This document shows positions 1,150 to 37,161 of a stretch of DNA of 42,126 nucleotides, in pieces (position 1 is the first letter of the stretch; each line of letters starts with the position of its first letter). The translations under genes were made by a program, and so were the position numbers. The notes under the pieces were generated by a model. It did not search any database. It saw only the letters and a list, made by a program, of their open reading frames with translations, and was not told where the DNA came from. The DNA is from a virus (taxonomy: Duplodnaviria > Heunggongvirae > Uroviricota > Caudoviricetes), in IMG/VR virus record IMGVR_UViG_2541047766_000003; one strand, written 5' to 3'.

Positions 1150-1862
1150 GCCTATAAGGCTCTCTTACCAGCCGCGCCCTAACAGGCGCACACGATCTGA
1201 CATTTGCATCCAACTTCGTTACTTACGGCCCGTAAACGGGCTGCCCGGATAGGGAATCGATAACTGCTCTCCCATTTTATCCTCTTCAAGCTGGTGCTTT
1301 ATGTAATCCTGTATCTTCGCCGTGTTCTTACCCACTGTATCGACGTAGTACCCTCTGCACCAGAACTCCCTGTTCCTGTATTTGAATTTCAAATCACCAA
1401 ACTGCTCGTAAAGCATCAGACTGCTTTTCCCTTTCAGATATCCCATAAACCCGGATACGCTCATTTTAGGCGGGATCTCCACAAGCATATGGATATGATC
1501 TGCACAGCATTCAGCTTCCAGAATCCGTACGCTTTTCCACTCACACAGCTTTCTCAAAATACTGCCTATTGCTCTACGCTTCTCTCTGTAGAACACCTGT
1601 CTTCGGTATTTTGGCGCAAAAACTATGTGATATTTACAGTTCCATCGGGTGTGCGCTAAGCTCTTTTCGTTCCCCATTGGGACCCCCTTTTGATTTCTTG
1701 TTTGACACTTGCAGTTGCCAGACCGCAAGGTGTTTTAACAAATCAAAAGGGGTTTTAATAACTGGCTCAAAGCTGAAAGCTTTCCGGAACCCCCAGCCTA
1801 GCTGGGGGTTTTCTGTGCACAAAAAACCCTCTGTAGTAACAGAGGGTTTTGTTCATTCATAG
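1150..1862 (-). mobile_element. IS200 (IS200/IS605 family) insertion; boundaries approximate
   Basis: Contains a tnpA whose product matches IS200 TnpA as recalled; two hairpins upstream of tnpA (aaaaccctctgt-agtaa-cagagggtttt and cccccagcc-tag-ctggggg) typical of the IS200 left end; size ~0.7 kb. Confidence 0.75.
1219..1677 (-). CDS. tnpA: IS200 transposase TnpA (Y1/HUH type)
   Basis: 152-aa product MGNEKSLAHTRWNCKYHIVFAPKYRRQ... with HxH motif (ADHIHMLVEIPPK); start chosen at internal Met of the track ORF 1219..1728. Confidence 0.9.
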   Translation of the reverse strand: MGNEKSLAHTRWNCKYHIVFAPKYRRQVFYREKRRAIGSILRKLCEWKSVRILEAECCADHIHMLVEIPPKMSVSGFMGYLKGKSSLMLYEQFGDLKFKYRNREFWCRGYYVDTVGKNTAKIQDYIKHQLEEDKMGEQLSIPYPGSPFTGRK

Positions 1863-1976: not shown

Positions 1977-2474
1977 TCAGTGCCACGATTTTTGCTTCTT
2001 CAGTGAATCGTATTGCTGCTCGCAGAATTCCCCTGCGATACGATACTTTTCAGCCTCAGCTGCTGTTGCGTTGTAAACTCGGTTGCTTTCTTCAAGCATG
2101 TCGGCGAGCACACCGATGACCTTGCTGGCTGGCGTGCCAGGGGGGAAAGATCCGGTATAGTGTTCGGCGAGCCGCCTGGTTTTGTCAAGCTCGGCGCGCA
2201 TGCTGTCAGCAGCGGAATTAGCATACTCAGCATCAGCACGCGCCGCATCGATACGGGATTGTGCTTCACGTTCAATTTGTGTTTTCTCCTGCTCACGCTG
2301 TGACCTTAACTTATCATCAGCCTGTTTCTGATCTTCCTTCGCCTGCGCATACCCGGCATCGTACTGACGGATGCCGTGCACATTCCAGGCAACAACTCCT
2401 GATATGACCAGAACAGCAAGCACCGCCATGATAATCAACTGTTTCCGGTATGCTTTTACGAATGCCCAGATCAT
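1977..2474 (-). CDS. Rz: Rz-like i-spanin
   Basis: N-terminal TM helix then charged coiled-coil body; start overlaps endolysin stop; contains an embedded +1-frame lipoprotein ORF. Confidence 0.7.
2000..2248 (-). CDS. Rz1: Rz1-like o-spanin lipoprotein embedded in Rz
   Basis: Embedded ORF with signal peptide and lipobox LLTAC, Pro-rich mature part; start set at internal Met (MRRVLMLSM...). Confidence 0.5.
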   Translation of the reverse strand: MRRVLMLSMLIPLLTACAPSLTKPGGSPNTIPDLSPLARQPARSSVCSPTCLKKATEFTTQQQLRLKSIVSQGNSASSNTIH

Positions 2475-3100
2475 ACCGCCAGCACCTTACTGGCATTGAT
2501 GTATCGCGCGCGCCGGTCGTCGATGCCGTTCCGGCCACCATTGATAATCAGAGTTACACGTGCAATATCGCCGGTATACTTCATGCATCCTTTGCTGGCA
2601 AAGAACCACGCCGCGCTACGAGCCGCGTATTCGTCCTGCGCCAGCAGTTCAGGACTCTCCAGCAGGTCAACCTTAAGACCGTTTCCACAGTCACGATAGT
2701 TATTCAAACCGGTAACCTGGATAAGCCCGCGCCCACGGTAGTTCCAGCCATCACCAGGGGCATTGTTCCCCATGCGTTTGCTGTACACCAGATTGGCAAT
2801 CGCTCTCTGGCGCTCAAGTGGCAATGGTGGTTCGCCTGCACGTCGCCCCAATGCGTTGGCCTGTCCCTGAGTGAGACGCCCAGCCCGAACAAAGTTAGCC
2901 AGTCCGCTGACGCTGTAGTTGAAATTCTCCTGCAACCGGGTGAAGCCTCCAGACTCATGCCCGACCTGAGCAATAAACATAGCCTGATCTTCTGGTTTGC
3001 TGATACCAAACTCTTTCATCGCAGAAGTTATATGCGAGAACCAGCGTGCGGCCAGTGCCTCGCTGATACCAGCAGCTCGCTGGAATTGTTTAATCTCCAT
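2471..3100 (-). CDS. Endolysin, glycoside hydrolase family 19 (chitinase-like)
   Basis: [20 protein letters not shown]...[12 protein letters not shown]...[12 protein letters not shown]; resembles the SPN1S/epsilon15-type endolysin as recalled. Confidence 0.9.
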
Positions 3101-3398
3101 GTTTAGACCTCGATACTTTGAAAATTTGAACGACGTTACCGCGCGTTTTAATAACCGCAGCTAGCATGACAGCGTTGATAATGACCTCAGATAAATCCAC
3201 AGCCATTGGCGTACGTAACCAGATTGCATAGGCGACACGAACAGGAATACTGGCCGCAGCAACAATCAGGAAATAAGCAAGCCATCCTCCCCACCTTCGG
3301 TGTTGAGAGCCGTTACGCCGGAATGTGACAACGCGAATTGCTATGCCAGTGCAAATAACTGCATTGGTGATAAGCAAAAAAAACTCATGCGTTACCAT
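3090..3398 (-). CDS. Putative holin (small multi-TM protein)
   Basis: Hydrophobic segments, charged C-terminus, immediately upstream of the endolysin. Confidence 0.55.
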
Positions 3399-3798
3399 CG
3401 TCTTTTCTCCCCGGAATTAACTCGCGTGGATTATCGGAACGGTGATAGAGCCATATACCAATACGCACAGCGACAATTGCTGACACGAATGCGCCTGCAG
3501 AGAAAACAATCCCTTCTTCAAAAGAGTCCTGCGTGATGGTAGGGATCAGGCTGGCTATGCCGATAAGAATTGATGCTGCTGGTTTGTAAAAGAGAAGGCC
3601 GCAAAGAAAGCTGAGCATCGACAGGAGCACCCGGCGACGGATGGGGTACTCTACTGCAGAGGTAACAAAAATTACCGCTCCAGCCAAAGCACCCAAAGCA
3701 ACCTCAGGAGGAACTCCTGCTATCACCGCCGCCAGAGAACTCATGCTAAGCCACTGATTTAAAGTTTCACTGGTTAGTTGAGCTGACATGTTTTCCAC
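3385..3798 (-). CDS. Putative holin/antiholin-like membrane protein
   Basis: Several predicted TM helices; first gene of the lysis cassette. Confidence 0.5.
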   Translation of the reverse strand: MENMSAQLTSETLNQWLSMSSLAAVIAGVPPEVALGALAGAVIFVTSAVEYPIRRRVLLSMLSFLCGLLFYKPAASILIGIASLIPTITQDSFEEGIVFSAGAFVSAIVAVRIGIWLYHRSDNPRELIPGRKDDGNA

Positions 3799-3991
3799 CG
3801 TTTATATGCATAACAACCTCCTGAACAGTAAAGCATTACGCATAATAAACCATTTATGGTTTTTTGTTACTTTAACATCGTCAATTCCCTGTTTTTCATG
3901 CCGAGAATAAAGCTCACCTTTTACATGACTCTGAAGAAACAAACAGTGAAGAGCAGGTTGAATACCGCACCATTTAATGGCGCGGTAGCAG

Positions 3992-4288
3992 TCAAATAGA
4001 GAAATAAACACAAAAACAAAAAACAACAGGAACAGCAAAATCCAACAGACTTCCCACATCCCACACGCGTGGATCAAAACCTCCCCACCACGGCATGTTG
4101 ATACGTTTCCCTTTCCCAAACTTTTCTATCCAGCGATATTCTGCCTGGGTGTGTTCACGCGCAATGAAGAACGTACAACCGGCTATCGCACCGTAAGCCC
4201 AGTTTCCGGTAAAAATACCAACCAGTACCTGAGCCGCAAAAGCGCAAAGCGAGTGAAGAAATGGAGTGACATCAATGCTCTTAATCAT
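3992..4288 (-). CDS. Small membrane protein of unknown function downstream of tailspike
   Basis: ATG overlaps tailspike stop (ATGA); 2-3 hydrophobic helices. Confidence 0.4.
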   Translation of the reverse strand: MIKSIDVTPFLHSLCAFAAQVLVGIFTGNWAYGAIAGCTFFIAREHTQAEYRWIEKFGKGKRINMPWWGGFDPRVWDVGSLLDFAVPVVFCFCVYFSI

Positions 4289-6474
4289 GAAACTTCCCCA
4301 TTGGTTGAAAATATGGCTCCTCCAACGCCAAGTGTATTTCGTGTTGTGCTCAACCTCAGAGGGCTGGAGTCAGAATTAGAATATCCTGTAGCAGAAATAA
4401 AAGATCCTCCACTAATAGTCAACTGCGGAACATCGGCTATATCTGAATAAGTTCTGTCAGCAACAGTATTATTTATAGCCACATATGATCCAAAAAAACT
4501 TCTTATTGTTTGGTTTTTAACTTTACTTCCTTCAATGGTTATCCTACTACCACAGTCGGCAATAAATCCTGAATCTGCATCCAGCGTTGCATTCATAAAA
4601 GAAGCTTCAGATCTCTCTACATCAATCCATCTAATATCTTTTGTGGGATTTGCACCAAATACATGACAAATATTAGAGTTAAACCTTACACCATCTTGGA
4701 GGTGCATTAATTTTTTTATATCTGTACCCCATAGCCTTGGAAAATTAACAGATGCTCCTGCATGGCAATCAAATCCCAGCTCAGCCCCTGAGATATCTAC
4801 AGCCTTTCCTGAAATAACAGCACCAGTGTCTGCATTAACGGCTGTTCCACAATTGCGCATATCATTACCAGCAACATCAACGCAACCCGCACCATCAATA
4901 CGCACACCAAGTGCACATCCATAAAAACCTTTTTCAATATTTGGTTCAAGGACTTTACCACTTGTTTCTGCATCACTTTCTTCAACGTCATGTCGTCTTG
5001 CATCAACATATGCTGTATGAATGCAGGTTAATCCACGATATGAGCAATGTATAGTTTTATGGTCGCGTATATTAACATTTGAACCATCTCTTACATTCCA
5101 TCCTATATAACAATAGCTTGCACTTGACCCCTGAAAATCTGCTTTAACATTATAAATACAATTAACTGACGCAACCGTACTCTCTGTGCACCGTTCAAAC
5201 TTGCTTACAGGCATTGATGCCTTGACATTATTTACCAGTTGCAGGGAAGAGTATCTGCTATAAGAAAAATCACATACGTAATACCCTTCTGGCATATATG
5301 CAGCAACACTTTCCTCATCAGGAGCACATCCGGTATGATATGCACTAATTTTTGCACCAAAACTACCATGAATTCCAACGTAGAACTTTCGAGCACCTGA
5401 ATACGGATAGAAATTAAGTTCAGCTTTTTGAGTTACAATAAATGCACAAACATCGCTATCATCTCTATTTTCTTCGATCTGAATAGCAAATACAGGACTT
5501 TTTGCTGCATCGCAAATGTAAAATAAATACTTGTATTCGTAATACGTTCTAACGATTTTAGTAAACAAACGAGTGTCAGAGAAAACCACTGAGTCTTCTG
5601 ATGTTATTTTAATCCAAGACAAATCAACACCTGAACTGAATTCAATTTGATAGTTGATAATATGCCCGGTCTTAATTCTTATTTCGCAGAAAGCATTACC
5701 ACCATCCCACATAGGCCTCATTGACTGGGCTGCAATGATTGCATCTTTGAGTGTAGGGTAATCACCCCATTCGCCAACAGTAATAACAAAAGTATAATAT
5801 GAGTTAAAAACAGCGGCATTTTTGCCTTTGGATATCAACTCCTTAATCATAAAAATATTATCTTCGTAATCACAAGGAGAAATTATATCCCTCATTTTGC
5901 TTTGAAATGTTCGTTGTCTTGCCCCGCTTCCTGACGGTATAAACCAACCAAAACCACCAACAACCCCGGCGATTGCAGCATCGACATAATTACGCATTGA
6001 GCGATTATTTACAGCGTCCTGCTCAAATGATGGATCTGCAAGGTTAGAAATTTTGTTTTGCTTTGCATCGTAATATTTTGCAAGCAAAGATGGTTTCATC
6101 AATGCACGTCTGAACCACCCAAAACATCGCTGGATCAGCATCGTCAGGTAGTCAAATGCATCTTCATGAACTTCGGGGAAAAATTTTCCCTGATTGCGAA
6201 GATCAGTCTCCTGCACCACATCAAGCACACGCTCTATCGTAATTCGCCAGCCAGCAGCAAGCGGCGACGGGAGAACCACTTCACCGCCACTATAAGTGCC
6301 CGCTCCAGTTACCTTATAACCGGTATCCAGAACCAATTCTGTTACGTTCCCGTTCAGGTCAGACACCTGAACAACCAGGTCGGTTTTTTTGAAAATACGG
6401 AAGGTATACGGAAATGATGTCGTAGCTCCGTTACCAGTGTATTCGTTGTGGTCAACTTCGGTTGAGACCGTCAT
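4285..6474 (-). CDS. Tailspike / tail fiber with conserved N-terminal adaptor domain and beta-helix-like C-terminal receptor-binding domain
   Basis: N-terminus MTVSTEVDHNEYTGNGATTSFPYTFRIF... typical of enterobacterial tailspike N-domains; C-terminal two thirds Gly/Asn/Ser/Cys-rich repetitive and AT-rich. Confidence 0.85.
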   Translation of the reverse strand: MTVSTEVDHNEYTGNGATTSFPYTFRIFKKTDLVVQVSDLNGNVTELVLDTGYKVTGAGTYSGGEVVLPSPLAAGWRITIERVLDVVQETDLRNQGKFFPEVHEDAFDYLTMLIQRCFGWFRRALMKPSLLAKYYDAKQNKISNLADPSFEQDAVNNRSMRNYVDAAIAGVVGGFGWFIPSGSGARQRTFQSKMRDIISPCDYEDNIFMIKELISKGKNAAVFNSYYTFVITVGEWGDYPTLKDAIIAAQSMRPMWDGGNAFCEIRIKTGHIINYQIEFSSGVDLSWIKITSEDSVVFSDTRLFTKIVRTYYEYKYLFYICDAAKSPVFAIQIEENRDDSDVCAFIVTQKAELNFYPYSGARKFYVGIHGSFGAKISAYHTGCAPDEESVAAYMPEGYYVCDFSYSRYSSLQLVNNVKASMPVSKFERCTESTVASVNCIYNVKADFQGSSASYCYIGWNVRDGSNVNIRDHKTIHCSYRGLTCIHTAYVDARRHDVEESDAETSGKVLEPNIEKGFYGCALGVRIDGAGCVDVAGNDMRNCGTAVNADTGAVISGKAVDISGAELGFDCHAGASVNFPRLWGTDIKKLMHLQDGVRFNSNICHVFGANPTKDIRWIDVERSEASFMNATLDADSGFIADCGSRITIEGSKVKNQTIRSFFGSYVAINNTVADRTYSDIADVPQLTISGGSFISATGYSNSDSSPLRLSTTRNTLGVGGAIFSTNGEVS

Positions 6475-6578
6475 GTTAAATCTCCAGATAGTCGCAGCAC
6501 CCGTTGCGCCGCATATCTGGTTATTCTATTACCTGAAAAACCACATATGGATAGAAAGACTATAAATACCAATAGATA

Positions 6579-6593
6579 TTACCTTTCGGGTAA
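6579..6593. promoter_or_regulatory. Operator-like palindrome TTACC-TTTCG-GGTAA
   Basis: Same 15-bp palindrome family as the OL/OR sites; lies in the divergent tailspike / small-gene intergenic region. Confidence 0.5.
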
Positions 6594-6630: not shown

Positions 6631-6650
6631 TACTGTATAAATATACAGTT
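6631..6650 (+). promoter_or_regulatory. LexA (SOS) box
   Basis: tACTGTataaatatACAGtt = CTGT-N8-ACAG with AT-rich spacer, 20 bp before the ATG at 6670. Confidence 0.7.
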
Positions 6651-6669: not shown

Positions 6670-6927
6670 ATGCAGCAGTATCACTATCCACTGGAAGACG
6701 GATTTACCGAAAGGATTCACACGCCGGGAGGCGTCAGGTCACTGGTGGAGGGATCGCACTTGATGAAATTACTCCGGGATCTCGATAAGGATGGATTTAA
6801 TGTCGATGGCCCACTTGCCGAACTGACTGCACTGATTAACTACGTCACCAGCTCACAGATGTCTATGCAGGATCTGCAAACACATCTCGACTATTGTGCC
6901 GAACAATTACGAAAACAAACCACATAA
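6670..6927 (+). CDS. Small protein (85 aa) homologous to C-terminal domain of the Bro-N protein; candidate SOS-controlled antirepressor
   Basis: RBS ggagaag then ATG; ...LMKLLRDLDKDGFNVDGPLAELT...DLQTH aligns with the C-terminus of 8075..8770 (...LMNLLNQLQDDGHDVSGAAAELT...DIQTH). Confidence 0.6.
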   Translation: MQQYHYPLEDGFTERIHTPGGVRSLVEGSHLMKLLRDLDKDGFNVDGPLAELTALINYVTSSQMSMQDLQTHLDYCAEQLRKQTT

Positions 6928-7677: not shown

Positions 7678-7697
7678 TGCTTTTCCTCACAATAACA

Positions 7698-7712
7698 TTA
7701 CCTTAAAGGTAA
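7698..7712. promoter_or_regulatory. Operator-like palindrome TTACC-TTAAA-GGTAA overlapping the promoter of 6949..7677
   Basis: 21 bp upstream of the minus-strand start; TTGATC -35-like element upstream on the minus strand. Confidence 0.5.
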
Positions 7713-7790
7713 TATCTTGCTTTCAGGTGATCAAGCGCTAAACGCCACCAACCAAATACGGTTGATTTTTATATACCTCCGCGCTTATCA

Positions 7791-7805
7791 TTACCTTTGC
7801 GGTAA
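7791..7805. promoter_or_regulatory. Operator-like palindrome TTACC-TTTGC-GGTAA with rightward promoter (TTGATT-18 bp-TATCAT)
   Basis: -35/-10-like hexamers immediately precede the palindrome; would transcribe toward the Bro-N gene. Confidence 0.45.
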
Positions 7806-8074
7806 ATTTACATCGCACTCCTCTTGTGTCATAGTAATCGGGCACTGGAAAAATCCAGTGCCGGGATTGGCGTCCCGGATTACTAAAAGGCGCATTCACC
7901 GCGCAAGCGGTTTTTTTATGCGTATAGCACGGCCACATTCGTATTATGGTGGGCTGTGTGGGGGCACCGAAAGGTGCGCCGGGTCCTTTTAGCCGGTTAC
8001 GCCAACCCTGCACAGTTCACCACCAACCGATTGGCGTCGGTAGTGGTGATTAACCAGACTAAAAGGTAACCACT

Positions 8075-8770
8075 ATGACAGCTACAAAAAGCACGTCCAT
8101 TTTTTCTTTCGAATCCCAAGCCGATATACGGGTAATCGTCATTAATGGTGAGCCATGGTTTATCGCTTCAGATGTTTGTCGGGCTATAGGCATAGCAAAC
8201 CATCGAGATGCTGTTCGAAAACTTGATGATGATGAGAAGGGCGTCGCTTCAACCGACACCCCTGGCGGTGAGCAAGAATCGATCATCATCTCCGAGTCAG
8301 GCCTCTACACACTGATCCTCCGCTGCCGCGATGCGGTGACACCAGGCACTATCCCCTACCGCTTTCGTAAATGGGTTACAGGTGAGGTTCTTCCTCAGAT
8401 CCGCCGCACCGGAAGTTACATTAAAAACTCGCTCCCGCAGGAAGAACGCATAAAGATGGTTGCCGACCAGGTAGCCAACGCCACGGCGTCAGCAGTAATG
8501 CAGGCGATGAAGATAGAGAACAAAACCTACAGCGCCCCGCTGAAGCCCGGCTACCGTAGCCTGATTCACTCGCCGTCTGGTGTTCTCGGCCTGACGGAAA
8601 ACTCACTGCTGATGAATCTGCTGAACCAGTTACAGGACGACGGGCACGATGTATCGGGCGCGGCGGCGGAGCTGACCACCATGTTCTGCTACATCGTCGG
8701 TGTGAGCAAATGCCTGCGTGATATCCAGACGCACGCGGAGTACATCAACGACAAAGCAGGGTTCTTCTGA
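8075..8770 (+). CDS. Bro-N domain protein, antirepressor-like
   Basis: N-terminal Bro-N signature (FSFESQADIRVIVINGEPWFIASDVCRAIGIANHRDAVRKLDDDEK); C-terminal domain is paralogous to 6670..6927. Confidence 0.8.
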   Translation: MTATKSTSIFSFESQADIRVIVINGEPWFIASDVCRAIGIANHRDAVRKLDDDEKGVASTDTPGGEQESIIISESGLYTLILRCRDAVTPGTIPYRFRKWVTGEVLPQIRRTGSYIKNSLPQEERIKMVADQVANATASAVMQAMKIENKTYSAPLKPGYRSLIHSPSGVLGLTENSLLMNLLNQLQDDGHDVSGAAAELTTMFCYIVGVSKCLRDIQTHAEYINDKAGFF

Positions 8771-8797: not shown

Positions 8798-8842
8798 AAA
8801 TAATTCTGTACAGATTGCAGACTGTGGGTGAATAGCGTACTA

Positions 8843-8857
8843 TTACCTTAAAGGTAA
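8843..8857. promoter_or_regulatory. Operator-like palindrome TTACC-TTAAA-GGTAA overlapping RBS region of 8870..9037
   Basis: Identical 15-mer to the 7698 site; ends 13 bp before the ATG. Confidence 0.5.
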
Positions 8858-8869
8858 AGGAGGCGCGAT

Positions 8870-12755: not shown

Positions 12756-14558
12756 TTAACCTCTCAAGAAACACGCCACAGCAACATCAAACAGGCTGGA
12801 ATCCTGTATTGCCTGCTCACTTTCCCTGTTAGCTTCATCCAGTACTTCACGCGCACTGCGCGATTGTGGATTACCATCATCATCCAGCACGGTGATTATC
12901 ATGTCAGGTGATTCAAGCAGCGAGTCTTCAGCTATACGCAGATCAATATCTCCTGCCGGATCTGCCATCATTTTTTGTTCTGTCTGTTGCAATATCTTAC
13001 CGGGCTCAAAAGGAGCTACTTCGTCTGGCGTCCTGACCTCTGCTGTTTTATAGAATGAAACAGCCTGAGCATTAAGTTCACTTTCTGCCTGCTGTCGCCG
13101 TGCCAGTTCTGCTCGAGCTTCAAAAAACTGACCTCCAGGCTCGTGCGGTGCCAACGCGTTACGGGAAAATTCCAGGCGTTCTTGTGCCTGCCGGATTCGT
13201 TGATCAATATCACGAAGTCTGGCCTGTTTATCTGATCGAGCACGAGACAAAGCTTTACCGCTACCGGTTGGCTCTTCTGCAAGAATTTGTGCACGCTGTT
13301 CAGTGAGATTTTCAATAATTCGTTGGCTATTAGCGATTTCAGACTGGTAAACCTGTCTATCTCCACGCGGCAAAAGCTGCGCGGCCTGTTCTTCAAGCAA
13401 CCGATTTTCTATAGCGCGCGCCGTTACTCCATCATCTACAGATGACAGAGCCTCATTAACTGCCTGAGACAGCAGACTCTTGCGCTCTGGAATTTCACTG
13501 AAAGATGCAGACTCAACAATGCTGGCAACGTCTACAGGTCTCCCCTGGCTAACATCAGACATAGCTTTTCGCAGAGCCTGAATGTGAGAATTGCGCGAAA
13601 GCACGTTGATCGGCACGCCGGGAGCAATATCAATTTCAGCATGATGAGCGGCATTCGCCGCCAGTGCAGCATCGACATCAACTGGTGAAAAATTTGGTGC
13701 GCTTGTAGACTCGCCGCGAGAGTTAATAAATCTGCCGACACCACCAAACGCCACCCCAAGAACAGCATCAATAGCAATTGCCTGTCGATCCAACACATCA
13801 TACTGGTTAGCCATTTCGCTATAGCCACCATCACGAAGCGTTTTTGCAGTAAGCCCACGCTGTGCCATACCGAACGCAATATTTGTACCTGCGGCATAGG
13901 CAATATCTGGCGTTGCACGTACTGCTGTTGCTGCGGCGCGTCGCACTGAACTCTCACCCGTCCGCGCGAGCTGAGCCGCCACACCTTCCGCCAGCGCACC
14001 ACCAGCACGTAACCCGAGGCTCATAGGGATCAATGTTCCGGCACCAGCAGTAATGCCCTGCACTAATCCCGCTTCCTGCGCTGTCCTGAAATCAACACCC
14101 TGTGCTGTCAGCCGTTCAAACTCAGAAAAACCCTGTAGCGAAGTTACCGCCGCTGCACCTCCGACCGGACCACCGAGCGTTGTACCGACAACAGCCTGCC
14201 CGCCCATATCGAACAACCCATAAAGAACCTGCCCTGCGGTTCCGGTTGTCGCGGCATCAGGCGTCAGCCGCTTAACCTGCTGCTCTGCTAGTTTTCTCTG
14301 CTCGGCAATGTATGAAACTGAAGTGTCATTGAGCGAGGTGTTTTCGTTAACAAACTGAGCAATCGGGGATACGATTTTATCCATCCCTGCCCATAGCAAC
14401 TGATCTGGCTTTGCCACCAGCCCGGAGTACAAACCAGACAATGCCGCTCCTACAGCATTGTCGAAAAAACCAACATCGCTGTTAAAGCCAGCTGGATTTG
14501 ATACTGCTTCGTCAAGCTGCTGATTCTGGTTTACTGGATTAAGGCCAAAGTAACTCAT
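12756..14558 (-). CDS. Virion/ejection protein
   Basis: 600 aa, Ala/Gly-rich N-terminal part, coiled-coil C-terminal part; operon position. Confidence 0.7.
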   Translation of the reverse strand: MSYFGLNPVNQNQQLDEAVSNPAGFNSDVGFFDNAVGAALSGLYSGLVAKPDQLLWAGMDKIVSPIAQFVNENTSLNDTSVSYIAEQRKLAEQQVKRLTPDAATTGTAGQVLYGLFDMGGQAVVGTTLGGPVGGAAAVTSLQGFSEFERLTAQGVDFRTAQEAGLVQGITAGAGTLIPMSLGLRAGGALAEGVAAQLARTGESSVRRAAATAVRATPDIAYAAGTNIAFGMAQRGLTAKTLRDGGYSEMANQYDVLDRQAIAIDAVLGVAFGGVGRFINSRGESTSAPNFSPVDVDAALAANAAHHAEIDIAPGVPINVLSRNSHIQALRKAMSDVSQGRPVDVASIVESASFSEIPERKSLLSQAVNEALSSVDDGVTARAIENRLLEEQAAQLLPRGDRQVYQSEIANSQRIIENLTEQRAQILAEEPTGSGKALSRARSDKQARLRDIDQRIRQAQERLEFSRNALAPHEPGGQFFEARAELARRQQAESELNAQAVSFYKTAEVRTPDEVAPFEPGKILQQTEQKMMADPAGDIDLRIAEDSLLESPDMIITVLDDDGNPQSRSAREVLDEANRESEQAIQDSSLFDVAVACFLRG

Positions 14559-24357: not shown

Positions 24358-26033
24358 TGTGATTGCCCACCCTGACCACTAACTGCATTCGCCATAGCTG
24401 ACAAAACACTCGGATCCGAAGTTTTAGCTTCGCTTAGCGTTTTGGCACCCTGTGCCGCCGCCATCCCCATCGCCATCATTTGTTGCTGCTGTTGCTGCTG
24501 TGCCCGTTGCTGGCGAGCCTGCTCAACCTGTTCCTGCGGAACAATGACGGTTGGAGACACTCCGGACATATCAGCGAATGCATCGATCGCCTGATCAACG
24601 TTGAGTTTGTCGAGAGCTTCTGGTTTCGCTTGCGCAAGTTGACCAATGAAGTTGACCGTAGACGCCAGACTGGACAAGCCGATAGACTTCTGCGCCTGAG
24701 CCATGACGGAAATGTATTCGACCTTCAGGGGCATACCTTCCATCGCGTCAGGCGGTGGCGGCAGCATGTTTTTACGCACCATCATCGAGAAAGCGCGGTC
24801 AATGAGAGGATTAAGACATTCGTCGTTCAGACGCTCCAGAACCGGCCCCAACATCAGAAGTTTTTCTTCTTTCATTTCGATCACCGCTTCAACAGGCATC
24901 GAGCGGGTATTGATGTTCTGCAACATCATGAACAGATCGACAAAGTAGGCGCTGTTAATGATTTGACGAGTGTCCTGAATGTCTGCTACCAGATCTGCTG
25001 TACTGGGGTTAACCAGATAAGCAGGCCTGAAACCATCCTGACCAGTAATCTGATCGATATACGTGATGTCGCCAGGAAGAAGGGAGGCGCGCTGATTCTT
25101 GAGGGAAGTCGGAGCAACCATCGGCGGATTGGTGGCTTTATCAATCAACTGCGACTTGCGCTTCTGGAGAAGTTGCAATGCCTTAACAGGTCCAAGCGCC
25201 AGCATACCCGGGCATGATGATCCATAAACATCTTCGCCGTTAACTTCCCAGCGCGGAGCCATAATTGGAAACTCATCGAATCCGGACTCACGCAACAACT
25301 TGTCGTTATCGCCACCAACCTCGTAATAAACCGATTTGAATGGCTTGTTCTTGCTATCCAGCTTCGATGTATCGCGGTCAATGTTCGGGTAAACCGAATG
25401 CATCACTTCAATCCACTTCTCGTAGGTGCCGCTTTCCCACATGCTTTTTACGGATTCGCTGACGTTATTTAGCCCGAACTCCTGAACAAGCTGACGAACA
25501 GTCATAGAGAACTTGCGGAAACAGGTGTCCACACTGCCACGAGGTGAGTTAGCCAGGTAGTAACTGCCTATAGGGAATGGCATTGTGCGAATGATGTCCT
25601 CGTCATCCTCCAGCACCGCCATTGCACCAGTGCTGTATGTGCCGAGGCTTCCGTATAACTGCGGCAGCGACTGATAGAGATTCGACTTATTGAACATATC
25701 GTTCATGCGGTTCTGCACCGCCTCAAGCCACAACTTAACAGGGCCATAATCCATCATTTCAGGATCTGGCGTAGCCAGGCGAAACCACGGACGCGCGGGG
25801 CTTGTGATGCCTGACATCATGCCGCTGGCGAGAGTGCGCGCCGCCATAGTCCCGGTCGAATCAATAATGCGTGTATTGCGTCGATCGTTACGGTTGACCT
25901 CAGAAGTCAGAAAGCGGGAACCACGCGGGTTGATGTAATCACTCAACTCGCGCCAGTGCGGCTCGAACGACTGACGCTCGCTTTCAAGTTGTGCGAACTG
26001 TTTGTTCAATCGCTCTTTAGTTGTTTCCGCCAT
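24354..26033 (-). CDS. Portal protein, T7 gp8-like head-to-tail connector
   Basis: 559 aa; C-terminal QQRAQQQQQQQMMAMGMAAAQGA tail and central TNPPMVAPTSLKNQRASLLPGD resemble T7 gp8 as recalled. Confidence 0.85.
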   Translation of the reverse strand: MAETTKERLNKQFAQLESERQSFEPHWRELSDYINPRGSRFLTSEVNRNDRRNTRIIDSTGTMAARTLASGMMSGITSPARPWFRLATPDPEMMDYGPVKLWLEAVQNRMNDMFNKSNLYQSLPQLYGSLGTYSTGAMAVLEDDEDIIRTMPFPIGSYYLANSPRGSVDTCFRKFSMTVRQLVQEFGLNNVSESVKSMWESGTYEKWIEVMHSVYPNIDRDTSKLDSKNKPFKSVYYEVGGDNDKLLRESGFDEFPIMAPRWEVNGEDVYGSSCPGMLALGPVKALQLLQKRKSQLIDKATNPPMVAPTSLKNQRASLLPGDITYIDQITGQDGFRPAYLVNPSTADLVADIQDTRQIINSAYFVDLFMMLQNINTRSMPVEAVIEMKEEKLLMLGPVLERLNDECLNPLIDRAFSMMVRKNMLPPPPDAMEGMPLKVEYISVMAQAQKSIGLSSLASTVNFIGQLAQAKPEALDKLNVDQAIDAFADMSGVSPTVIVPQEQVEQARQQRAQQQQQQQMMAMGMAAAQGAKTLSEAKTSDPSVLSAMANAVSGQGGQSQ

Positions 26034-26254: not shown

Positions 26255-26322
26255 ATCAATGACTCCGTACGCAATTAAATTATTACCAATTTAACCACAT
26301 ATGATTTATTTATCGTAGGCAG

Positions 26323-26359
26323 TTGACATTTAACGCACGAATTATTACCTTTCAGGTAA
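26323..26359 (+). promoter_or_regulatory. Promoter-like TTGACA plus operator palindrome TTACC-TTTCA-GGTAA
   Basis: Architecture parallels pL (ttgacat...attattacc...ggtaa); faces the tRNA/Gp49 islet. Confidence 0.45.
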
Positions 26360-26681: not shown

Positions 26682-26758
26682 GTGGCATTAGCTCAGTTGG
26701 ACAGAGCAACCGCCTTCTAAGCGGTTGGTCGCAGGTTCGAATCCTGCATGCTACGCCA
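26682..26758 (+). tRNA. tRNA-Arg (anticodon TCT)
   Basis: Cloverleaf folded by hand: acceptor GTGGCAT/ATGCTAC, D-stem GCTC/GAGC, anticodon stem ACCGC/GCGGT with loop CTTCTAA, T-arm GCAGG-TTCGAAT-CCTGC, encoded CCA. Confidence 0.85.
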
Positions 26759-28894: not shown

Positions 28895-29487
28895 TGATTA
28901 CCATCCTGACGTTCTTTGAGTCGCTTCCTGGCTGCTGCTATGCGATCAGCAATTGTCACATTCACATTAACATCCAGGCGTTCTTTGAATGCGTTGACGT
29001 CGACGTGCTTACCAATCAGTTCGAGGTTCTTCACCTTGTCAGGCCATTTAATTTTTTTGAGGATTGTCTCTATCGAATCCTCGTTCATGTTCATGATGGT
29101 CGATGACAGATCAAAGCCACTAAGCGTAGTGCGCCAGATTTTCGGCCACTCACGGATTGGTTTAAGGCTCCCATCGTCGTTGAGGATGTCGATCACGTCC
29201 ATCTGGTCGATCTCCACCAGGCGCATGAGAACGTAATCAGCACTGACGCGCATTCGTTTGTTGCGCTCCTCCATCAACTCGGCAATCCGTTTTTGAATGC
29301 GTTCATCGCGCATCATGACACTGGCTTTAACTGCCGCTGTATTTGGGGAGAATCCTGCGTTAATCGCTGCCTGAGTCTGGTTTTCAGGCGTTTTGATGTA
29401 TGACTGGCAATAAGCCTCCTGCATTGCTGTTAGTGGCTTAAATTGCGTTGATTTGCGTTTATAGGTTTTAGGTTCAGCAGGCATCAT
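28891..29487 (-). CDS. Terminase small subunit (start uncertain; the open frame runs to 29565)
   Basis: Terminase_2-like ...FKPLTAMQEAYCQSYIKTPENQTQAAINAGFSPNTA...; start set at the internal MMPAEP because the upstream 26 codons translate a DNA tandem repeat. Confidence 0.7.
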   Translation of the reverse strand: MMPAEPKTYKRKSTQFKPLTAMQEAYCQSYIKTPENQTQAAINAGFSPNTAAVKASVMMRDERIQKRIAELMEERNKRMRVSADYVLMRLVEIDQMDVIDILNDDGSLKPIREWPKIWRTTLSGFDLSSTIMNMNEDSIETILKKIKWPDKVKNLELIGKHVDVNAFKERLDVNVNVTIADRIAAARKRLKERQDGNQ

Positions 29488-29561
29488 AACCACCGTGGTA
29501 ATAGTTACCGTTGTGGTAATAGTAACATGCAAAATAAAGCCGCCATAGTTGGCGGCAGCAT

Positions 29562-29795
29562 TCAAAGTCCATCAAATTCATCGTAAAAACTCTCGTCAAG
29601 ATACCCTTCCCATTTACCGCGAATGAAAATTACATCCTCACCGCAAGGGTGCTGACTGTCGATAACTATATCCCTCCTGGCGCAACCATACTTGTGCATA
29701 AGAAATTTAACCTCTTTCGGAAAATTTGCTGAGTTATCTCTCATATCTTCAAGGTCGTAGCGTATTTTTGGCATAACACCTTCGTGACATGTCAC
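29562..29795 (-). CDS. Hypothetical small protein
   Basis: 77-aa ORF; ATG lies inside the GTGACATGTCAC palindrome. Confidence 0.5.
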   Translation of the reverse strand: MTCHEGVMPKIRYDLEDMRDNSANFPKEVKFLMHKYGCARRDIVIDSQHPCGEDVIFIRGKWEGYLDESFYDEFDGL

Positions 29796-30133
29796 ACTAT
29801 TAATTTCGTTTCATGCCAGCCTTTGGTCACCCAGCATTGCGAGTCACCATTACACGGGCATGAATTCACAGGTACTCTCTCGCCGCACTTACCGCAACGT
29901 TTTCTGCTGATCGATTTTATACGCCCGCGCACGCGTGCATCATCCTGGCGGATCAGTAACGCTATATACTCACCAAATTCGTAAGGCGCACGCCCGGGGC
30001 GACGCGTGGCACAGTTACGCTCCAGCATTTCAATTTCCTGAGCATCAAGCACAATCTCCAGCTTACGTACACCGGATTCAGCTTGTCTGGCTCTCTGAGC
30101 GGCTTTGCGCTCTGCTGCTGATTTAGCCATCAA
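29792..30133 (-). CDS. Hypothetical protein with C-terminal Cys-rich zinc-finger-like motif
   Basis: CGKCG...CPCNGDSQC. Confidence 0.5.
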   Translation of the reverse strand: MMAKSAAERKAAQRARQAESGVRKLEIVLDAQEIEMLERNCATRRPGRAPYEFGEYIALLIRQDDARVRGRIKSISRKRCGKCGERVPVNSCPCNGDSQCWVTKGWHETKLIV

Positions 30134-33979: not shown

Positions 33980-33994
33980 TTACCTCTAAGGTAA
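33980..33994. promoter_or_regulatory. Operator-like palindrome TTACC-TCTAA-GGTAA immediately upstream of the DUF1064 gene
   Basis: Ends 4 bp before the ATG; TTGATT -35-like element upstream on the minus strand. Confidence 0.5.
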
Positions 33995-34041
33995 TTAAAA
34001 ACCACATAAGACACGAAATCAATAGAATTTAGAATATTTTG

Positions 34042-34056
34042 TTACCCAATAGGTAA
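34042..34056. promoter_or_regulatory. Operator-like palindrome TTACC-CAATA-GGTAA
   Basis: Second site in the same intergenic region, after a terminator-like hairpin at the end of the P-like gene. Confidence 0.5.
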
Positions 34057-34093: not shown

Positions 34094-34879
34094 TTACTTG
34101 ATAAATCCTGCCGCCTTTCCCCGCCTGTATTCCTCCATCAGCCACTGCGCCGGTGTTATTCCCCCAAGGGTGGCGGCGTTAGGCATGCACCCGAAACTTC
34201 GCCCTGGTGGATGGTAAACGTCTCTCCCTGTGTCCGGAGGCGTACTCATGGGTTCTGGCTTTGCCTGTATGCTGATCACCGGATCCGGTATCTGCTGTCC
34301 GGAAGCCACCTTTTTCGCCCAATCATCGAGCAGCCTGCGCGCGTGTTTCTCAACCTCAATCTCGCTAAGCTGGCGCTGATACATTGCACGGCGGGTATCA
34401 CATACGACCCAGTACATAACCGGATGTCGCCACGGGAATCTTTCGGGACCACCAGGATATAAACTTTTTTCCTTGCTGTACCTGTGAAACTCCGCCATCA
34501 CATCGTCAATGGTGACGCCAAGAACCATCTTGCTGTCTTTGCACCACTTGATAAATTGCCCTGGAGACGGCCAGAACGGAGATTCACTGGCGCGGGCGTG
34601 GCGCATACCAGCAGAAACCTGTTCACGGGTTCGGATCCCCCCTTCGGCAAACGCAGCAATCCACTGCTGTTTTGCAGCAACTTCCTGCTCTGGCGTCTTC
34701 AGGTTGGTTACCACTGCCGCCGGAAACAGTTGTTTCAGCTGTTTGAAAAGGGCATCAACAAGCCTCTCTGCTGACATGTTCACCACGTTGTCATTGTTGG
34801 TGTACTGATGCTCATAACCTGACATGCGAGAAAGGGCTTCTCCGTCACGGTTTTGTATCGCGGTAAAAACGTTGTTCAC
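34094..34879 (-). CDS. Replication protein P-like (helicase loader)
   Basis: ...REQVSAGMRHARASESPFWPSPGQFIKWCKD aligns with lambda P (EQVNAGMRVARRQNRPFLPSPGQFVAWCRE, from memory); GTG start after RBS ggagga. Confidence 0.75.
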   Translation of the reverse strand: MNNVFTAIQNRDGEALSRMSGYEHQYTNNDNVVNMSAERLVDALFKQLKQLFPAAVVTNLKTPEQEVAAKQQWIAAFAEGGIRTREQVSAGMRHARASESPFWPSPGQFIKWCKDSKMVLGVTIDDVMAEFHRYSKEKSLYPGGPERFPWRHPVMYWVVCDTRRAMYQRQLSEIEVEKHARRLLDDWAKKVASGQQIPDPVISIQAKPEPMSTPPDTGRDVYHPPGRSFGCMPNAATLGGITPAQWLMEEYRRGKAAGFIK

Positions 34880-35691
34880 AAGAAATCCTCCCATGCTTCA
34901 GGGCTGTTCCAGTGCGGAACGTTGTTATCAGGTAATGTTGATTGCTTCTGTCTGCTAATCTGCAGCCGCCTTGCCAGCTTCTGCTCCCACTGTGCCTGAT
35001 GGTATGCCTTACCCTCAGCCATCCAGTAAATTCTGAACTCTGCAAGTTCCTGTGCCGTTGGCAGACTGTCCAGGTAGATCCCCTGCAATGAGCTTTTCCG
35101 AAGAAAGTCATCTGATGGCTGCCATTGTTCATGCATGACAAATTTGCCTAATTGCCCTGGCCCACCAGGAGGAACAAAGTTATTCATCACGGCGTTGTTT
35201 GCGCCGGGGTCATGAGGCACAGAATCCCCGGTTTTTGTCCTGCTCTCCCTCTCTTGGTTAAATGACTGGTTATATGACTGGTTCTGGATCCCGTTTTTGG
35301 GATCATTCAACATCCCGTTTTTGGGATCATTCAACATCCCGTTTTTGGGTATATTCCCGTTTTCGGTAACATTACCGTTTTCGGGTTCATTACCCCCTTC
35401 CCGGTTGCCTTTAATGTTCCCGTTTTTGGTTATATTAAGAGAGAAAACCCGCACTCTTTTCGTCGCTCCCTTTCTCTCTCCGGTATCTGAAATAAGCCCC
35501 ATTTTCATGAGCGATATAAGTCCGGCCTGCACGGTTTTTTTATTCAGGCAAGTGTCTTTAACGAGGCGTTCTATGCTGGGGTAGCAGAGGTTATATTCAT
35601 CGGCTCTGTCAGCCATCGAGAGCAGTATGAGCTTTAATGACGAGCTACCTGGATCTGTCTCCCAGGCCCAATCTGTTGCATGTCTGCTCAT
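34876..35691 (-). CDS. Replication initiator, lambda O-like, with in-gene origin
   Basis: N-terminal HTH; central Asn/Gly/Pro repeats encoded by iterons. Confidence 0.75.
   Translation of the reverse strand: MSRHATDWAWETDPGSSSLKLILLSMADRADEYNLCYPSIERLVKDTCLNKKTVQAGLISLMKMGLISDTGERKGATKRVRVFSLNITKNGNIKGNREGGNEPENGNVTENGNIPKNGMLNDPKNGMLNDPKNGIQNQSYNQSFNQERESRTKTGDSVPHDPGANNAVMNNFVPPGGPGQLGKFVMHEQWQPSDDFLRKSSLQGIYLDSLPTAQELAEFRIYWMAEGKAYHQAQWEQKLARRLQISRQKQSTLPDNNVPHWNSPEAWEDFL
35288..35436. repeat. Replication-origin iterons (about six copies of CCGTTTT(T/C)GG, two perfect 24-bp repeats)
   Basis: atcccgtttttgggatcattcaac repeated in tandem, then degenerate copies at ~19-bp spacing. Confidence 0.7.
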
Positions 35692-35706: not shown

Positions 35707-35976
35707 TCAGCTTGAATGTTGTGGGGAGGAATTAATCATGATCTGCTTAATCTCTGCCCTGATACGACGGTTTGATTCCATGGTGCACTCAACACAGTGT
35801 CCGTTGTAAACCCAGCGTTCACTGTCATGTCCGTGCTTACATGTTTTTCCGGTGTAGTAGCGTTTAAGTCCGCGCTTTGCGGCATCAATACGTGTAATGA
35901 TTTCCATGGTAAGCCCTGTTATTGGTATTGGGATTACGGTCATTTTGTGCTGACACAAAAAAAAGATCAACCACAT
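35707..35976 (-). CDS. Hypothetical protein at cII position (Cys/His-rich), start uncertain
   Basis: ORF after a tR1-like terminator downstream of the cro-like gene; alternative starts at MTVIP or MEIITR. Confidence 0.4.
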   Translation of the reverse strand: MWLIFFLCQHKMTVIPIPITGLTMEIITRIDAAKRGLKRYYTGKTCKHGHDSERWVYNGHCVECTMESNRRIRAEIKQIMINSSPQHSS

Positions 35977-35987
35977 TTGGTTTTTTA

Positions 35988-36002
35988 TTACCTTTGAGGT
36001 AC
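35988..36002. promoter_or_regulatory. Operator-like palindrome TTACC-TTTGA-GGTAC (imperfect)
   Basis: Lies between a hairpin terminator (gaccgcc-gggt-ggcggtc, ~36012..36031) and the next gene. Confidence 0.35.
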
Positions 36003-36057: not shown

Positions 36058-36288
36058 TCATGAGTAGAAGAAGTATGCCAGTTCTGCTTTTGAGCGCAGC
36101 CATTGTCTTGTTTTACAGGCTTTAAAAAGCCCATTCATCAATACTTTACCTGGCATTTTGCGCTTACCTGTTAAGTGAGTCTGGATATAATGACTCGTCG
36201 TTCCGGCTTCCTGTGCGAAGGCTTCACGCTCATCCGGAGTAAGTGCAAGCCAGTGCTTTTTGAAATCGAAATGTCCGTTATCGCTCAT
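36058..36288 (-). CDS. Cro-like HTH regulator
   Basis: Divergent from the repressor; HTH segment EAFAQEAGTTSHYIQTHLTG. Confidence 0.6.
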   Translation of the reverse strand: MSDNGHFDFKKHWLALTPDEREAFAQEAGTTSHYIQTHLTGKRKMPGKVLMNGLFKACKTRQWLRSKAELAYFFYS

Positions 36289-36324: not shown

Positions 36325-36387
36325 TCACCCATAAGGTAACAAAAATCAAGGATAGTTACCTATGGGGTGCATTTACCTATTGGGTAA
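36325..36387. promoter_or_regulatory. OR-like tripartite operator
   Basis: Three palindromes: tCACC-CATAA-GGTAA (36325..36339), TTACC-TATGG-GGTgc (36356..36370), TTACC-TATTG-GGTAA (36373..36387). Confidence 0.6.
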
Positions 36388-37084: not shown

Positions 37085-37161
37085 TTACCTAATGGGTAAT
37101 TTTTTTAACTCATATCTATTGACATCAAACCAAATACGCATAATTATTACCTAAACGGTAA
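37085..37161 (+). promoter_or_regulatory. OL-like operators and pL-like promoter
   Basis: TTACC-TAATG-GGTAA (37085..37099), TTGACA at 37119..37124, TTACC-TAAAC-GGTAA (37147..37161) overlapping the -10/+1 region. Confidence 0.55.

Follow-up and report, generated by a model that had tools for sequence, protein, structure and literature searches.

Uetakeviruses such as epsilon15, phiV10, SPN1S and SPC32H are common serotype-converting prophages of E. coli and Salmonella. They serve as reporter and biocontrol phages, and the structure of their Rep/Ant switch has been solved. The Rep operator is a 15-bp dyad, TTACC-N5-GGTAA, copies of which are annotated as 'repressor' protein_bind sites in the epsilon15 GenBank record AY150271.2. 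The Rep protein of SPC32H binds DNA as a tetramer with two palindrome-binding pairs, each from different dimers (PMC9638917). Within the searchable literature, we found no description of how the late and lysis genes of Uetakeviruses are switched on. Here we analyzed a stretch of 42,126 nt of viral DNA (IMG/VR record IMGVR_UViG_2541047766_000003; hereafter the window), which by its homology is an epsilon15/phiV10-type (Uetakevirus) prophage. This region shares 99.8% identity with Escherichia phage HEMP4 and ~82% with phiV10, epsilon15, SPN1S and Tyrion, all of them Uetakevirus, and has a 99.9% identical match in the chromosome NZ_CP033635.1. Judging from the comparison of these genomes, a palindrome upstream of its lysis cassette is probably one copy of a genus-wide cis-regulatory motif, with a consensus of about AACCAWAWRYGGTT.

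Four described systems invite comparison. Like the Rep operators of epsilon15 and SPC32H, the motif is a dyad with an ACC...GGT core and an A+T-rich centre; both elements occur many times per genome in promoter regions, paired at fixed distances. They differ in that the motif spacing is one bp longer (ACC-N6-GGT) and its flanks are AACC/GGTT rather than TACC/GGTA. Unlike the Rep operators, the motif is also without annotation as a repressor site, or as anything else, in the epsilon15 record, which marks repressor, IHF, integrase and RNase III sites. The lambda operators at PL and PR, bound by Cro and CI, are similar in being short palindromes within the core promoters of a temperate phage, where binding would occlude RNA polymerase, and the window also encodes a Cro-like helix-turn-helix gene. 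In lambda, however, Cro and CI share operators that are confined to the immunity region, whereas the motif differs from the Rep operator, is not found at PR/PRM and stands at the heads of structural and lysis genes. The stoperators of cluster A mycobacteriophages are asymmetric, lie in one orientation within transcribed regions and block elongation. They are repressor-related sites found genome-wide, as are the Rep operators and the motif here; unlike stoperators, the present sites are dyads at promoter regions. Finally, AY150271.2 annotates a stem in the epsilon15 lysis leader (24755-24817), homologous to the leader stem described below, as an 'RNaseIII' site. This feature begins inside the palindrome, the 3′ arm of which is the foot of the stem; however, the overlap is just 4-7 nt, the left arm is not part of the stem, and the other motif copies have no such hairpin. 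RNase III cleavage in the epsilon15 record is a prediction only.

The palindrome in the lysis leader and its conservation

A sequence-only reading of the window had reported the palindrome AAACCAT-TT-ATGGTTT at 3847-3862, and it was found exactly there, with perfect arms (Table 1). On the gene strand it reads AAACCAT-AA-ATGGTTT. It contains a core 12-mer, CCATAAATGGTT (3848-3859, minus strand), with 0 mismatches to the 12-mer consensus CCAWAWRYGGTT, and a repeat finder lengthened it to 10-nt arms of 90% complementarity (3844-3853 and 3856-3865). The same reading had placed it ~50 bp upstream of the first lysis gene in a 190-bp gap, and both values were close: the palindrome spans 58-73 nt ahead of the first holin-like gene, counted from its ATG (3789), and is 49 nt ahead of it if an alternative GTG start (3798) is used, inside a gap of 202 nt that separates this gene from the 98-aa ORF. 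The holin-like gene, on the minus strand, is preceded by the Shine-Dalgarno sequence GGTGG (3795-3799) and is homologous to phiV10 p27 and to epsilon15 gp23, the record of which gives three transmembrane domains. Epsilon15-type phages mostly carry divergent serotype-conversion genes upstream, where the window has the 98-aa ORF; in the window, the genes upstream of the lysis cassette are co-oriented with the lysis genes. A further palindrome at 3963-3987 does not count as a motif copy: this G+C-rich hairpin has a variable loop and a stem that is kept, and it belongs to the module of the 98-aa ORF.

Table 1. Features of the lysis region and copies of the motif in the window
Feature	Position	Strand	Remarks
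Palindrome AAACCATTTATGGTTT	3847-3862	-	perfect 7-nt arms, 2-nt spacer
Lysis -35, GTAACA	3865-3870	-	predicted; kept in all window-type relatives
Lysis -10, TATTAT	3842-3847	-	predicted; begins 2 nt past the 10-mer core CCATAAATGG and shares one base, the last, with the palindrome
Leader inverted repeat, 5′ arm	3827-3850	-	from the fold; GUUU (3847-3850) in common with the palindrome 3′ arm
Leader inverted repeat, 3′ arm	3800-3822	-	from sequence and fold
Short upstream ORF	3767-3811	-	overlaps the start of the holin-like gene
Tailspike gene	4285-6474	-	
98-aa membrane ORF (phrog_1443)	3992-4288	-	
First holin-like gene	3385-3789	-	phrog_198 holin, E = 7e-42
Second holin gene (phrog_217)	3090-3398	-	
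GH19-type endolysin gene	2471-3100	-	
Rz/Rz1	1977-2474	-	
Motif copy CCATATGTGGTT	6539-6550	-	upstream of the tailspike gene; Rep operator at 6579-6593
Motif copy TCATATGTGGTT	26293-26304	-	upstream of gp3/portal; Rep operator at 26345-26359
Motif copy CCAAATGTGGTT	35969-35980	-	after the cro-like gene and terminator (post-cro)
Motif copy CCAAATACGGTT	7752-7763	+	promoter of the isrK-C4-antirepressor operon
Degenerate motif copy CCAAATACGC	37130-37139	+	in the PL promoter spacer
Degenerate motif copy TCTTATGTGG	34002-34011	-	spacer of the promoter of the DUF1064 (resolvase-like) gene

On its own, the palindrome is not beyond chance. Its exact pattern is expected 0.13 times per window, and the whole window holds 36 perfect inverted repeats of this class (arms ≥7 nt, spacers 0-4 nt), where Markov-1 simulations gave 15 ± 4.4. 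The palindrome is meaningful because of its conservation, its recurrence and its association with Rep operators, and not because of the length of its arms.

Conservation in related prophages, which the sequence-only reading had named as the check, was indeed found. The 80 IMG/VR loci that encode the holin-like protein yielded 45 distinct upstream sequences; 36 distinct lysis leaders were aligned, and all 36 have the palindrome at the same place. Columns C9, G16 and G17 of the alignment are invariant, and the CC...GG core as a whole is invariant or nearly so. Both phiV10 and Tyrion carry a perfect 14-mer, AACCATATATGGTT, in their lysis leaders, and epsilon15 carries the copy CCATATGTGG. The right arm is nearly invariant and the left arm is weaker; in column 8, 27 sequences have C, 8 have T and one has A, opposite the invariant G17. 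Because the left arm is less conserved, part of the conservation of the palindrome is due to the leader inverted repeat rather than to dyad recognition. A single leader (L054) has a double change, CCGT...ACGG. In BUCT711, a Klebsiella relative, the leader is missing altogether, with just 7 nt between the tailspike stop codon and the holin start, so at least this member of the genus can express its lysis genes without the element.

The conserved block of the alignment, with the consensus AACCATATATGGTTTATTGTGTATGAT, begins at the palindrome. The 5′ flank is unrelated between lineages, and BLAST homology of the window to phiV10, epsilon15, SPN1S and Tyrion stops at 3859-3870, that is, at the palindrome. 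This raises the question of whether the motif is a module junction, a short conserved crossover island for the exchange of tailspike, conversion and lysis modules. The exact coincidence of the homology break with the motif is what such a role would predict, motif copies flank the most exchangeable regions, and in the IMG/VR locus L096 the ends of a deletion meet at the tailspike copy through TATGTG microhomology. However, 12-14 bp is very short for homologous exchange, and the position of the motif is conserved relative to operators and -10 blocks, which points to a transcriptional role. Junctions at promoters are, moreover, the expected by-product of selection on functional modules, and we regard a role in module exchange as extremely improbable.

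Recurrence of the motif and its relation to Rep operators and predicted promoters

The motif is built of AACC-N6-GGTT half-sites around an A+T-rich centre. A search of the window with CCAWAWRTGGTT, allowing at most one mismatch, returned 8 matches where 1.55 were expected, a number reached by none of 100 shuffles. The good sites are all intergenic and stand at the heads of transcription units, and copies are found at orthologous places in epsilon15, phiV10, Tyrion and the Klebsiella phage BUCT711. The portal-site copy has orthologues in all four; the lysis-site copy is present in epsilon15, phiV10, Tyrion and the 36 distinct IMG/VR leaders and is absent in BUCT711; and where the window has its degenerate PL copy, Tyrion has a perfect CCATATATGG at the same place. 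Inner positions of the motif often break the symmetry, as in CCAAATGTGG. At the tailspike site, where a conserved block, GGTAATAGAAT, comes after the motif, we compared 38 distinct close relatives: one of 12 motif columns and none of the 10 columns in the -10 block vary, as against 13 of 28 columns in the upstream linker and 3 of 6 in the other linker. This pattern suggests that the tailspike copy is under purifying selection. No conserved copy was found in the PR/PRM region. Sites for the host factors IHF, DnaA, LexA, CRP, sigma-54 and PhoP were rejected by inspection, the consensus patterns (among them the LexA box CTGT-N8-ACAG, IHF WATCAANNNNTTR and the DnaA box TTATNCACA) being inconsistent across the copies. 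A true LexA box does occur at 6633-6648, and the 85-aa ORF behind it (6670-6927) is an SPC32H-type antirepressor (5D50_E, E = 1e-47).

The Rep of the window is homologous to SPC32H Rep (5D50_A, E = 4e-42). Outside this phage group no Rep homologues were found, and the operator is the same in every genome that we examined, including where Rep identity falls to 42%. The window has ~15-17 copies of TTACC-N5-GGTAA (29 strand matches against 0.6 expected, merging into 17 sites). In its sequence the palindrome, as AACC-N6-GGTT, is not a canonical Rep operator. Since TACC-N6-GGTA never occurs, the motif and the Rep operator form discrete classes, which argues against simple degenerate Rep binding.

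The two classes are closely associated in position. Of the 34 motif sites in five genomes, 21 have a Rep operator within 70 nt, and windows of this kind make up 4.4% of the sequence (binomial P about 1e-20, though orthologous sites are not independent). The distances between motif and operator centres cluster at 19-20, 40-43 and 51-53 bp, or roughly 2, 4 and 5 helical turns, and they are fixed while the sequence in between drifts. In the window, the post-cro copy follows a Rep operator (35987-36001) by 7 nt, the copy at the antirepressor operon lies between operators at 7697-7713 and 7790-7806, and the DUF1064 copy also sits between two operators. At the lysis site of the window no TTACC-N5-GGTAA occurs within 2.7 kb, the nearest being the operator upstream of the tailspike gene (Table 1); the orthologous lysis sites of epsilon15, phiV10 and Tyrion do have a Rep operator, with the two centres 43 bp apart. 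The motif thus persists at lysis sites that lack a nearby operator, and Rep bridging at those sites would therefore need to act over a long range.

Promoters were identified as matches to the consensus hexamers only, and the positions of motif centres were read by eye from these hexamers. The predicted lysis promoter of the window, GTAACA-17-TATTAT, was returned by two separate scans and has 9 of 12 matches; one of these scans, of 3300-4500, found 1 such promoter where 1.9 are expected by chance. In the aligned leaders, the -10 hexamer follows T-A-n-n-n-T (columns 20, 21 and 26) in 31 of the 36. The phiV10 lysis promoter is predicted as TTAACC-17-TATAAT (10 of 12 matches), with the motif over the -35 and the spacer. 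The layout of the window lysis site, -35 / 5 nt / 10-mer / 2 nt / -10, is that of PL, where the motif fills the spacer of the predicted promoter TTGACA (37119-37124)-17-AATTAT (37142-37147; 10 of 12 matches) and a Rep operator (37147-37161) begins at the last base of the -10 hexamer. Similarly, the motif lies in the spacer of the predicted DUF1064 promoter of epsilon15 and BUCT711 (TTGAAA/TTGATA-18-TAAATT). It abuts the -35 of the predicted promoters at the antirepressor operon (TTGATT-18-TATCAT) and, in all five genomes, at the post-cro site (TTGATC-16/17-CAAAAT, with AAAAAT in Tyrion); the post-cro copy of the window overlaps this predicted TTGATC. At the tailspike site, again in all five genomes, the left half of the motif is the predicted -35 itself (T(C/T/A)CATA-17-TAGAAT). 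At most predicted promoters, then, the motif overlaps core elements. The position of its centre relative to the best -10-like hexamer varies (about -19.5, -26.5 to -29.5 and -40.5), which rules out one fixed promoter geometry for all copies; because of this variation, a single mode of action does not account cleanly for every site. A literature search returned no transcription-start data for Uetakevirus promoters or for phiV10 reporter constructs.

These geometries bear on two further explanations. In the first, the motif is plain promoter DNA, a -35 with its spacer fused to the foot of the leader repeat, having no dedicated binder; the copies would have arisen by promoter duplication and the dyad would be incidental. 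The much better conservation of the right arm, which belongs to the long stem, fits this account, as do the frequent asymmetry of the inner positions, the fact that palindromes of such size are common by chance, and the behaviour of the tailspike left half, T(C/T)CATA, which acts as a -35 would, 17 nt upstream of an invariant TAGAAT. The account does not, however, sit well with the shifting place of the 12-mer, which is found in the spacer (PL, DUF1064), over the -35 (late sites) and upstream of the -35 (post-cro, antirepressor operon). Furthermore, the DUF1064 copies of Tyrion and BUCT711 match better on the opposite strand, as expected for a dyad, and the distances between motif and operator are fixed despite drift between them. 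We consider plain promoter DNA an unlikely explanation.

In the second, the motif recruits an activator: an early product of the phage, such as the phrog_536 regulator, whose gene immediately precedes terS, would bind it and supply the missing -35 contact at late promoters (portal, tailspike, lysis) and so set up a temporal cascade, acting across the -35 region as do lambda CII and T4 MotA. An annotated transcriptional regulator gene (29792-30133, phrog_536) does lie at the end of the early operon, and the late sites combine a poor -35 with good -10-like hexamers (TATGAT/TATAAT, TAGAAT, AATAAT), which follow the centre of the motif by 14-17 nt; the centre falls at about -40.5/-41.5, the classical class II activator position, at the post-cro and antirepressor-operon sites. 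By contrast, at PL and DUF1064 the motif lies in the spacer of promoters with a near-consensus -35, where binding should repress. A centre near -26.5 is unusual for activators in the established promoter classes, and DNA binding by the phrog_536 protein has no backing from family or structure assignments. Activation through the motif is, in our estimate, distinctly unlikely.

The long leader inverted repeat and tests at the RNA level

From GGTTTAT on, the lysis leader is complementary to, and predicted to pair with, the stretch that immediately precedes the Shine-Dalgarno sequence of the holin-like gene. In the alignment, 86% of the cells of this long stem are paired, as against at most 55% when the partner columns were slid, and in 9 pairs both partners have changed, for instance by a GC/AU swap at columns 24/66. 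The stem has an energy of -35.1 kcal/mol (z = -5.8) in epsilon15 and of -17.2 kcal/mol (z = -0.9) in the window. The first 4 nt of the stem, its foot, come from the 3′ arm of the palindrome. This arm is accordingly under a second, separate constraint as the base of a conserved leader inverted repeat, and the right arm of the palindrome is better conserved because it is also part of the long stem. The 3′ arm of the leader repeat contains a strong Shine-Dalgarno sequence (AGGAGG, 3817-3822), and a short upstream ORF starts in it with an ATG at 3809-3811; this ATG is kept in ~30 of the 36 leaders, and the frame and peptide of the ORF are not conserved.

The small hairpin that the palindrome itself could form behaves differently from the long stem. 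It is weak, at -3 to -4.4 kcal/mol with z about -1 (-4.4 kcal/mol, z = -1.2 in the window), and covariation of its arms has no support in the 36 sequences, in which one double change occurs and 302 of 500 shuffles reach the observed score. A role at the DNA level is favoured because the small hairpin is weak and without arm covariation. A terminator was rejected: the stem has only 2 G-C pairs and -4.4 kcal/mol, and a terminator scan gave no match. A T run follows the stem on the non-coding (plus) strand only. In Rfam, the palindrome had no match at the gathering score and one weak, chance-level match at E ≤1.

An RNA-level function would have the hairpin AAACCAUAAAUGGUUU in read-through transcripts compete with the long leader hairpin for GGUUU and thereby tune RNase III processing or access to the ribosome-binding sites of the upstream ORF and the holin gene. 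The overlap of the palindrome 3′ arm with the 5′ arm of the long stem is in keeping with such competition. So are the long stem itself, which has covariation support, is very stable in epsilon15 and is annotated there as an RNase III site, and the co-oriented upstream genes of the window, from which read-through of the tailspike operon is possible. However, the small helix shows no covariation, is weak and is missing from the minimum-energy fold; several copies (in the PL spacer, upstream of -35 hexamers) would lie outside the RNA if the predicted promoters are real; the epsilon15-type phages have divergent upstream genes; and the element matches no Rfam family. A function of this kind is very unlikely.

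An operator reading and its candidate binders

The reading that we favour, with a probability of roughly 45%, is that the motif is an operator-type, putative protein-binding site that overlaps the predicted lysis promoter and forms part of the Rep network. Uetakevirus genomes would carry the motif within or directly beside the core elements of the promoters of most of their transcription units, usually on the same face of the helix as a Rep operator, with the lysis copy occupying the -35 and spacer of a predicted sigma-70 promoter. A dimeric phage DNA-binding protein on the motif would bar RNA polymerase from the lysis promoter, so that the lysogen would make neither holin nor endolysin before the Rep network is inactivated by the antirepressor. 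The motif, its conservation and recurrence, the association with Rep operators and the location relative to promoter-like hexamers are observed; genuine promoters at the hexamers, protein binding to the motif and negative control are our inferences. An operator with negative control is favoured because, at most predicted promoters, the motif overlaps elements that RNA polymerase must contact. An unguarded promoter before the holin and endolysin genes should be harmful to the lysogen, and since the lysis promoter of the window has no canonical operator nearby, a non-canonical silencer would be needed there.

The sequence-only reading had suggested a possible regulator site for lysis timing. The first half of that suggestion is reasonable, in that a conserved site with the properties of regulatory DNA lies in the predicted lysis promoter region; nothing links the site to timing. 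The same motif stands at early (PL, DUF1064/ruvC-like, post-cro), antirepressor-operon, portal and tailspike promoters, and because it is common to early, structural and antirepressor promoters, it is probably a general control site of the phage rather than a dedicated lysis timer.

Two candidate binders emerge from the sequence comparisons. One is the second DNA-binding pair of the Rep tetramer, for which the association with operators, the spacing and the shared ACC/GGT core speak, and against which stand the discrete N6 spacing and the motif copies that have no nearby operator. The other is a helix-turn-helix protein distinct from Rep, for instance the Cro-like one encoded at 36058-36288, whose helix-turn-helix is weakly similar to the N-terminal one of Rep (E = 0.004). 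This second candidate is weakened by the lack of a conserved motif copy at PR/PRM. The Cro-like protein, a gp40-like zinc-finger protein and the phrog_536 regulator received no Pfam or NCBIfam assignment, and a PDB search with the Cro-like protein and the phrog_536 regulator gave no match.

The operator reading can be extended to a more specific model, which we put forward as possible though doubtful. The motif would be the operator of a second lysis-lysogeny layer of Uetakeviruses, an N6 site for the second pair of Rep or for a distinct Rep-like helix-turn-helix protein, to which fold-back of the lysis leader may be added. In the Rep form of this model, an operator-motif bridge over 2, 4 or 5 helical turns would close every lytic promoter, including that of the lysis cassette. 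Read-through transcripts would carry the full leader stem, hiding the ribosome-binding site and start codon of the upstream ORF; transcripts from the lysis promoter would be without the 5′ arm and hence translatable.

A literature search with the motif string and for Uetakevirus promoters found no mention of the motif in the part of the literature that it covered, and a prior description is possible. As a phage promoter/operator element, the motif is an incremental addition to a well-understood kind of system and brings no new principle. A second conserved cis-element at most promoter regions would nevertheless give a concrete handle on the regulatory circuit of Uetakeviruses. It could reveal which protein silences the lysis cassette where a Rep operator is absent, and could clarify how a single Rep tetramer engages two DNA sites and which positions are safe for the insertion of reporters.

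Lysis leader and tailspike junctions

The leader of the holin-like gene carries a strong Shine-Dalgarno sequence and, overlapping the gene's start, an upstream ORF of 14 codons. The ATG of this ORF is retained in most relatives, but its frame and peptide are not. The upstream ORF could provide translational coupling, or the leader stem, a long inverted repeat, could exert fold-back control. A strong hairpin that lacks a U tract is also found 3′ of the stop codon of a 98-aa ORF. Among the relatives its stem is conserved and its loop is variable; this hairpin may act as a stabiliser or be terminator-like, as part of the 98-aa ORF module.

In Klebsiella phage BUCT711, 7 nt separate the tailspike stop codon from the holin-like gene start (14525-14533 of that locus); the entire palindrome-bearing leader is lost or was never present. 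In another relative (IMG/VR UViG_2585427789_000028), internal sequence of a replication-P-like gene runs directly, via TATGTG microhomology, into the paralogous copy of the palindrome's motif 5′ of the tailspike gene. This junction seems to result from a large deletion that left the prophage defective or arose in one already defective.

Inserts, replication gene and terS upstream region

The IS200-type transposase ORF and STnc490 (together 1219-1810) sit between the Rz gene and the two lipoprotein-like genes found at the window start. The tRNA-Arg gene is located in a reverse-oriented insert with terminase genes on one side and portal genes on the other. Tandem repeats within the replication initiator gene, which correspond to a peptide repeat (NDPKNGML) in its protein, are probably origin iterons within an O-like gene.

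Upstream of terS, a promoter-like sequence (TTGACG-17-TTTGAT) immediately precedes a terminator-like hairpin; past this hairpin lie a canonical operator for the phage repressor Rep and a hybrid operator (TTACC-ACGGT-GGTTA) that overlaps the terS ribosome-binding site. This layout is reminiscent of lambda PR'-tR'.

Features of the prophage by position
Feature	Position	Strand	Remark
IS200-type transposase ORF	1219-1728	-	recognised from sequence
STnc490 RNA	1687-1810	-	Rfam, 146 bits
AGGAGG and upstream ORF	3767-3822	-	lysis leader
Hairpin UACCGCGCCAUU-A-AAUGGUGCGGUA	3963-3987	-	-17.4 kcal/mol, z = -4.1
Perfect LexA box CTGTATAAATATACAG	6633-6648		5′ of 85-aa ORF
85-aa ORF	6670-6927	+	
isrK	7842-7917	+	Rfam, 76.7 bits
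C4 antisense RNA	7942-8027	+	Rfam, 77.7 bits
Second antirepressor gene	8075-8770	+	Bro-N/Ant-type
tRNA-Arg	26682-26758	+	anticodon TCT
Hairpin GCCGCC-AACTAT-GGCGGC, then TTTATTTT	within 29480-29570	-	5′ of terS
Replication initiator gene	34876-35691	-	
Tandem repeats (24-nt, 18-nt) with CCCAAAAACGGGAT	35288-35430		
TTACC-N5-GGTAA	6579-6593, 7697-7713, 7790-7806, 8842-8858, 26345-26359, 29505-29519, 33980-33994, 34042-34056, 35987-36001, 36325-36387 (three sites), 37085-37099, 37147-37161		

Antirepressor modules and Rep operators

The 85-aa ORF behind the LexA box matches Ant, the antirepressor of SPC32H (5D50_E, E = 1e-47); the arrangement is the SOS-controlled Ant/Rep induction switch. The second antirepressor gene lies directly 3′ of isrK and C4, in a module that looks like the P1 immI or Gifsy IsrK type, and the promoter of this module is flanked by two Rep operators, one on either side.

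About 15-17 copies of TTACC-N5-GGTAA are spread over the entire prophage (29 strand hits versus 0.6 expected), and they match epsilon15 sites annotated as 'repressor' binding. Rep control seems to extend beyond the immunity region, to nearly all transcription units.
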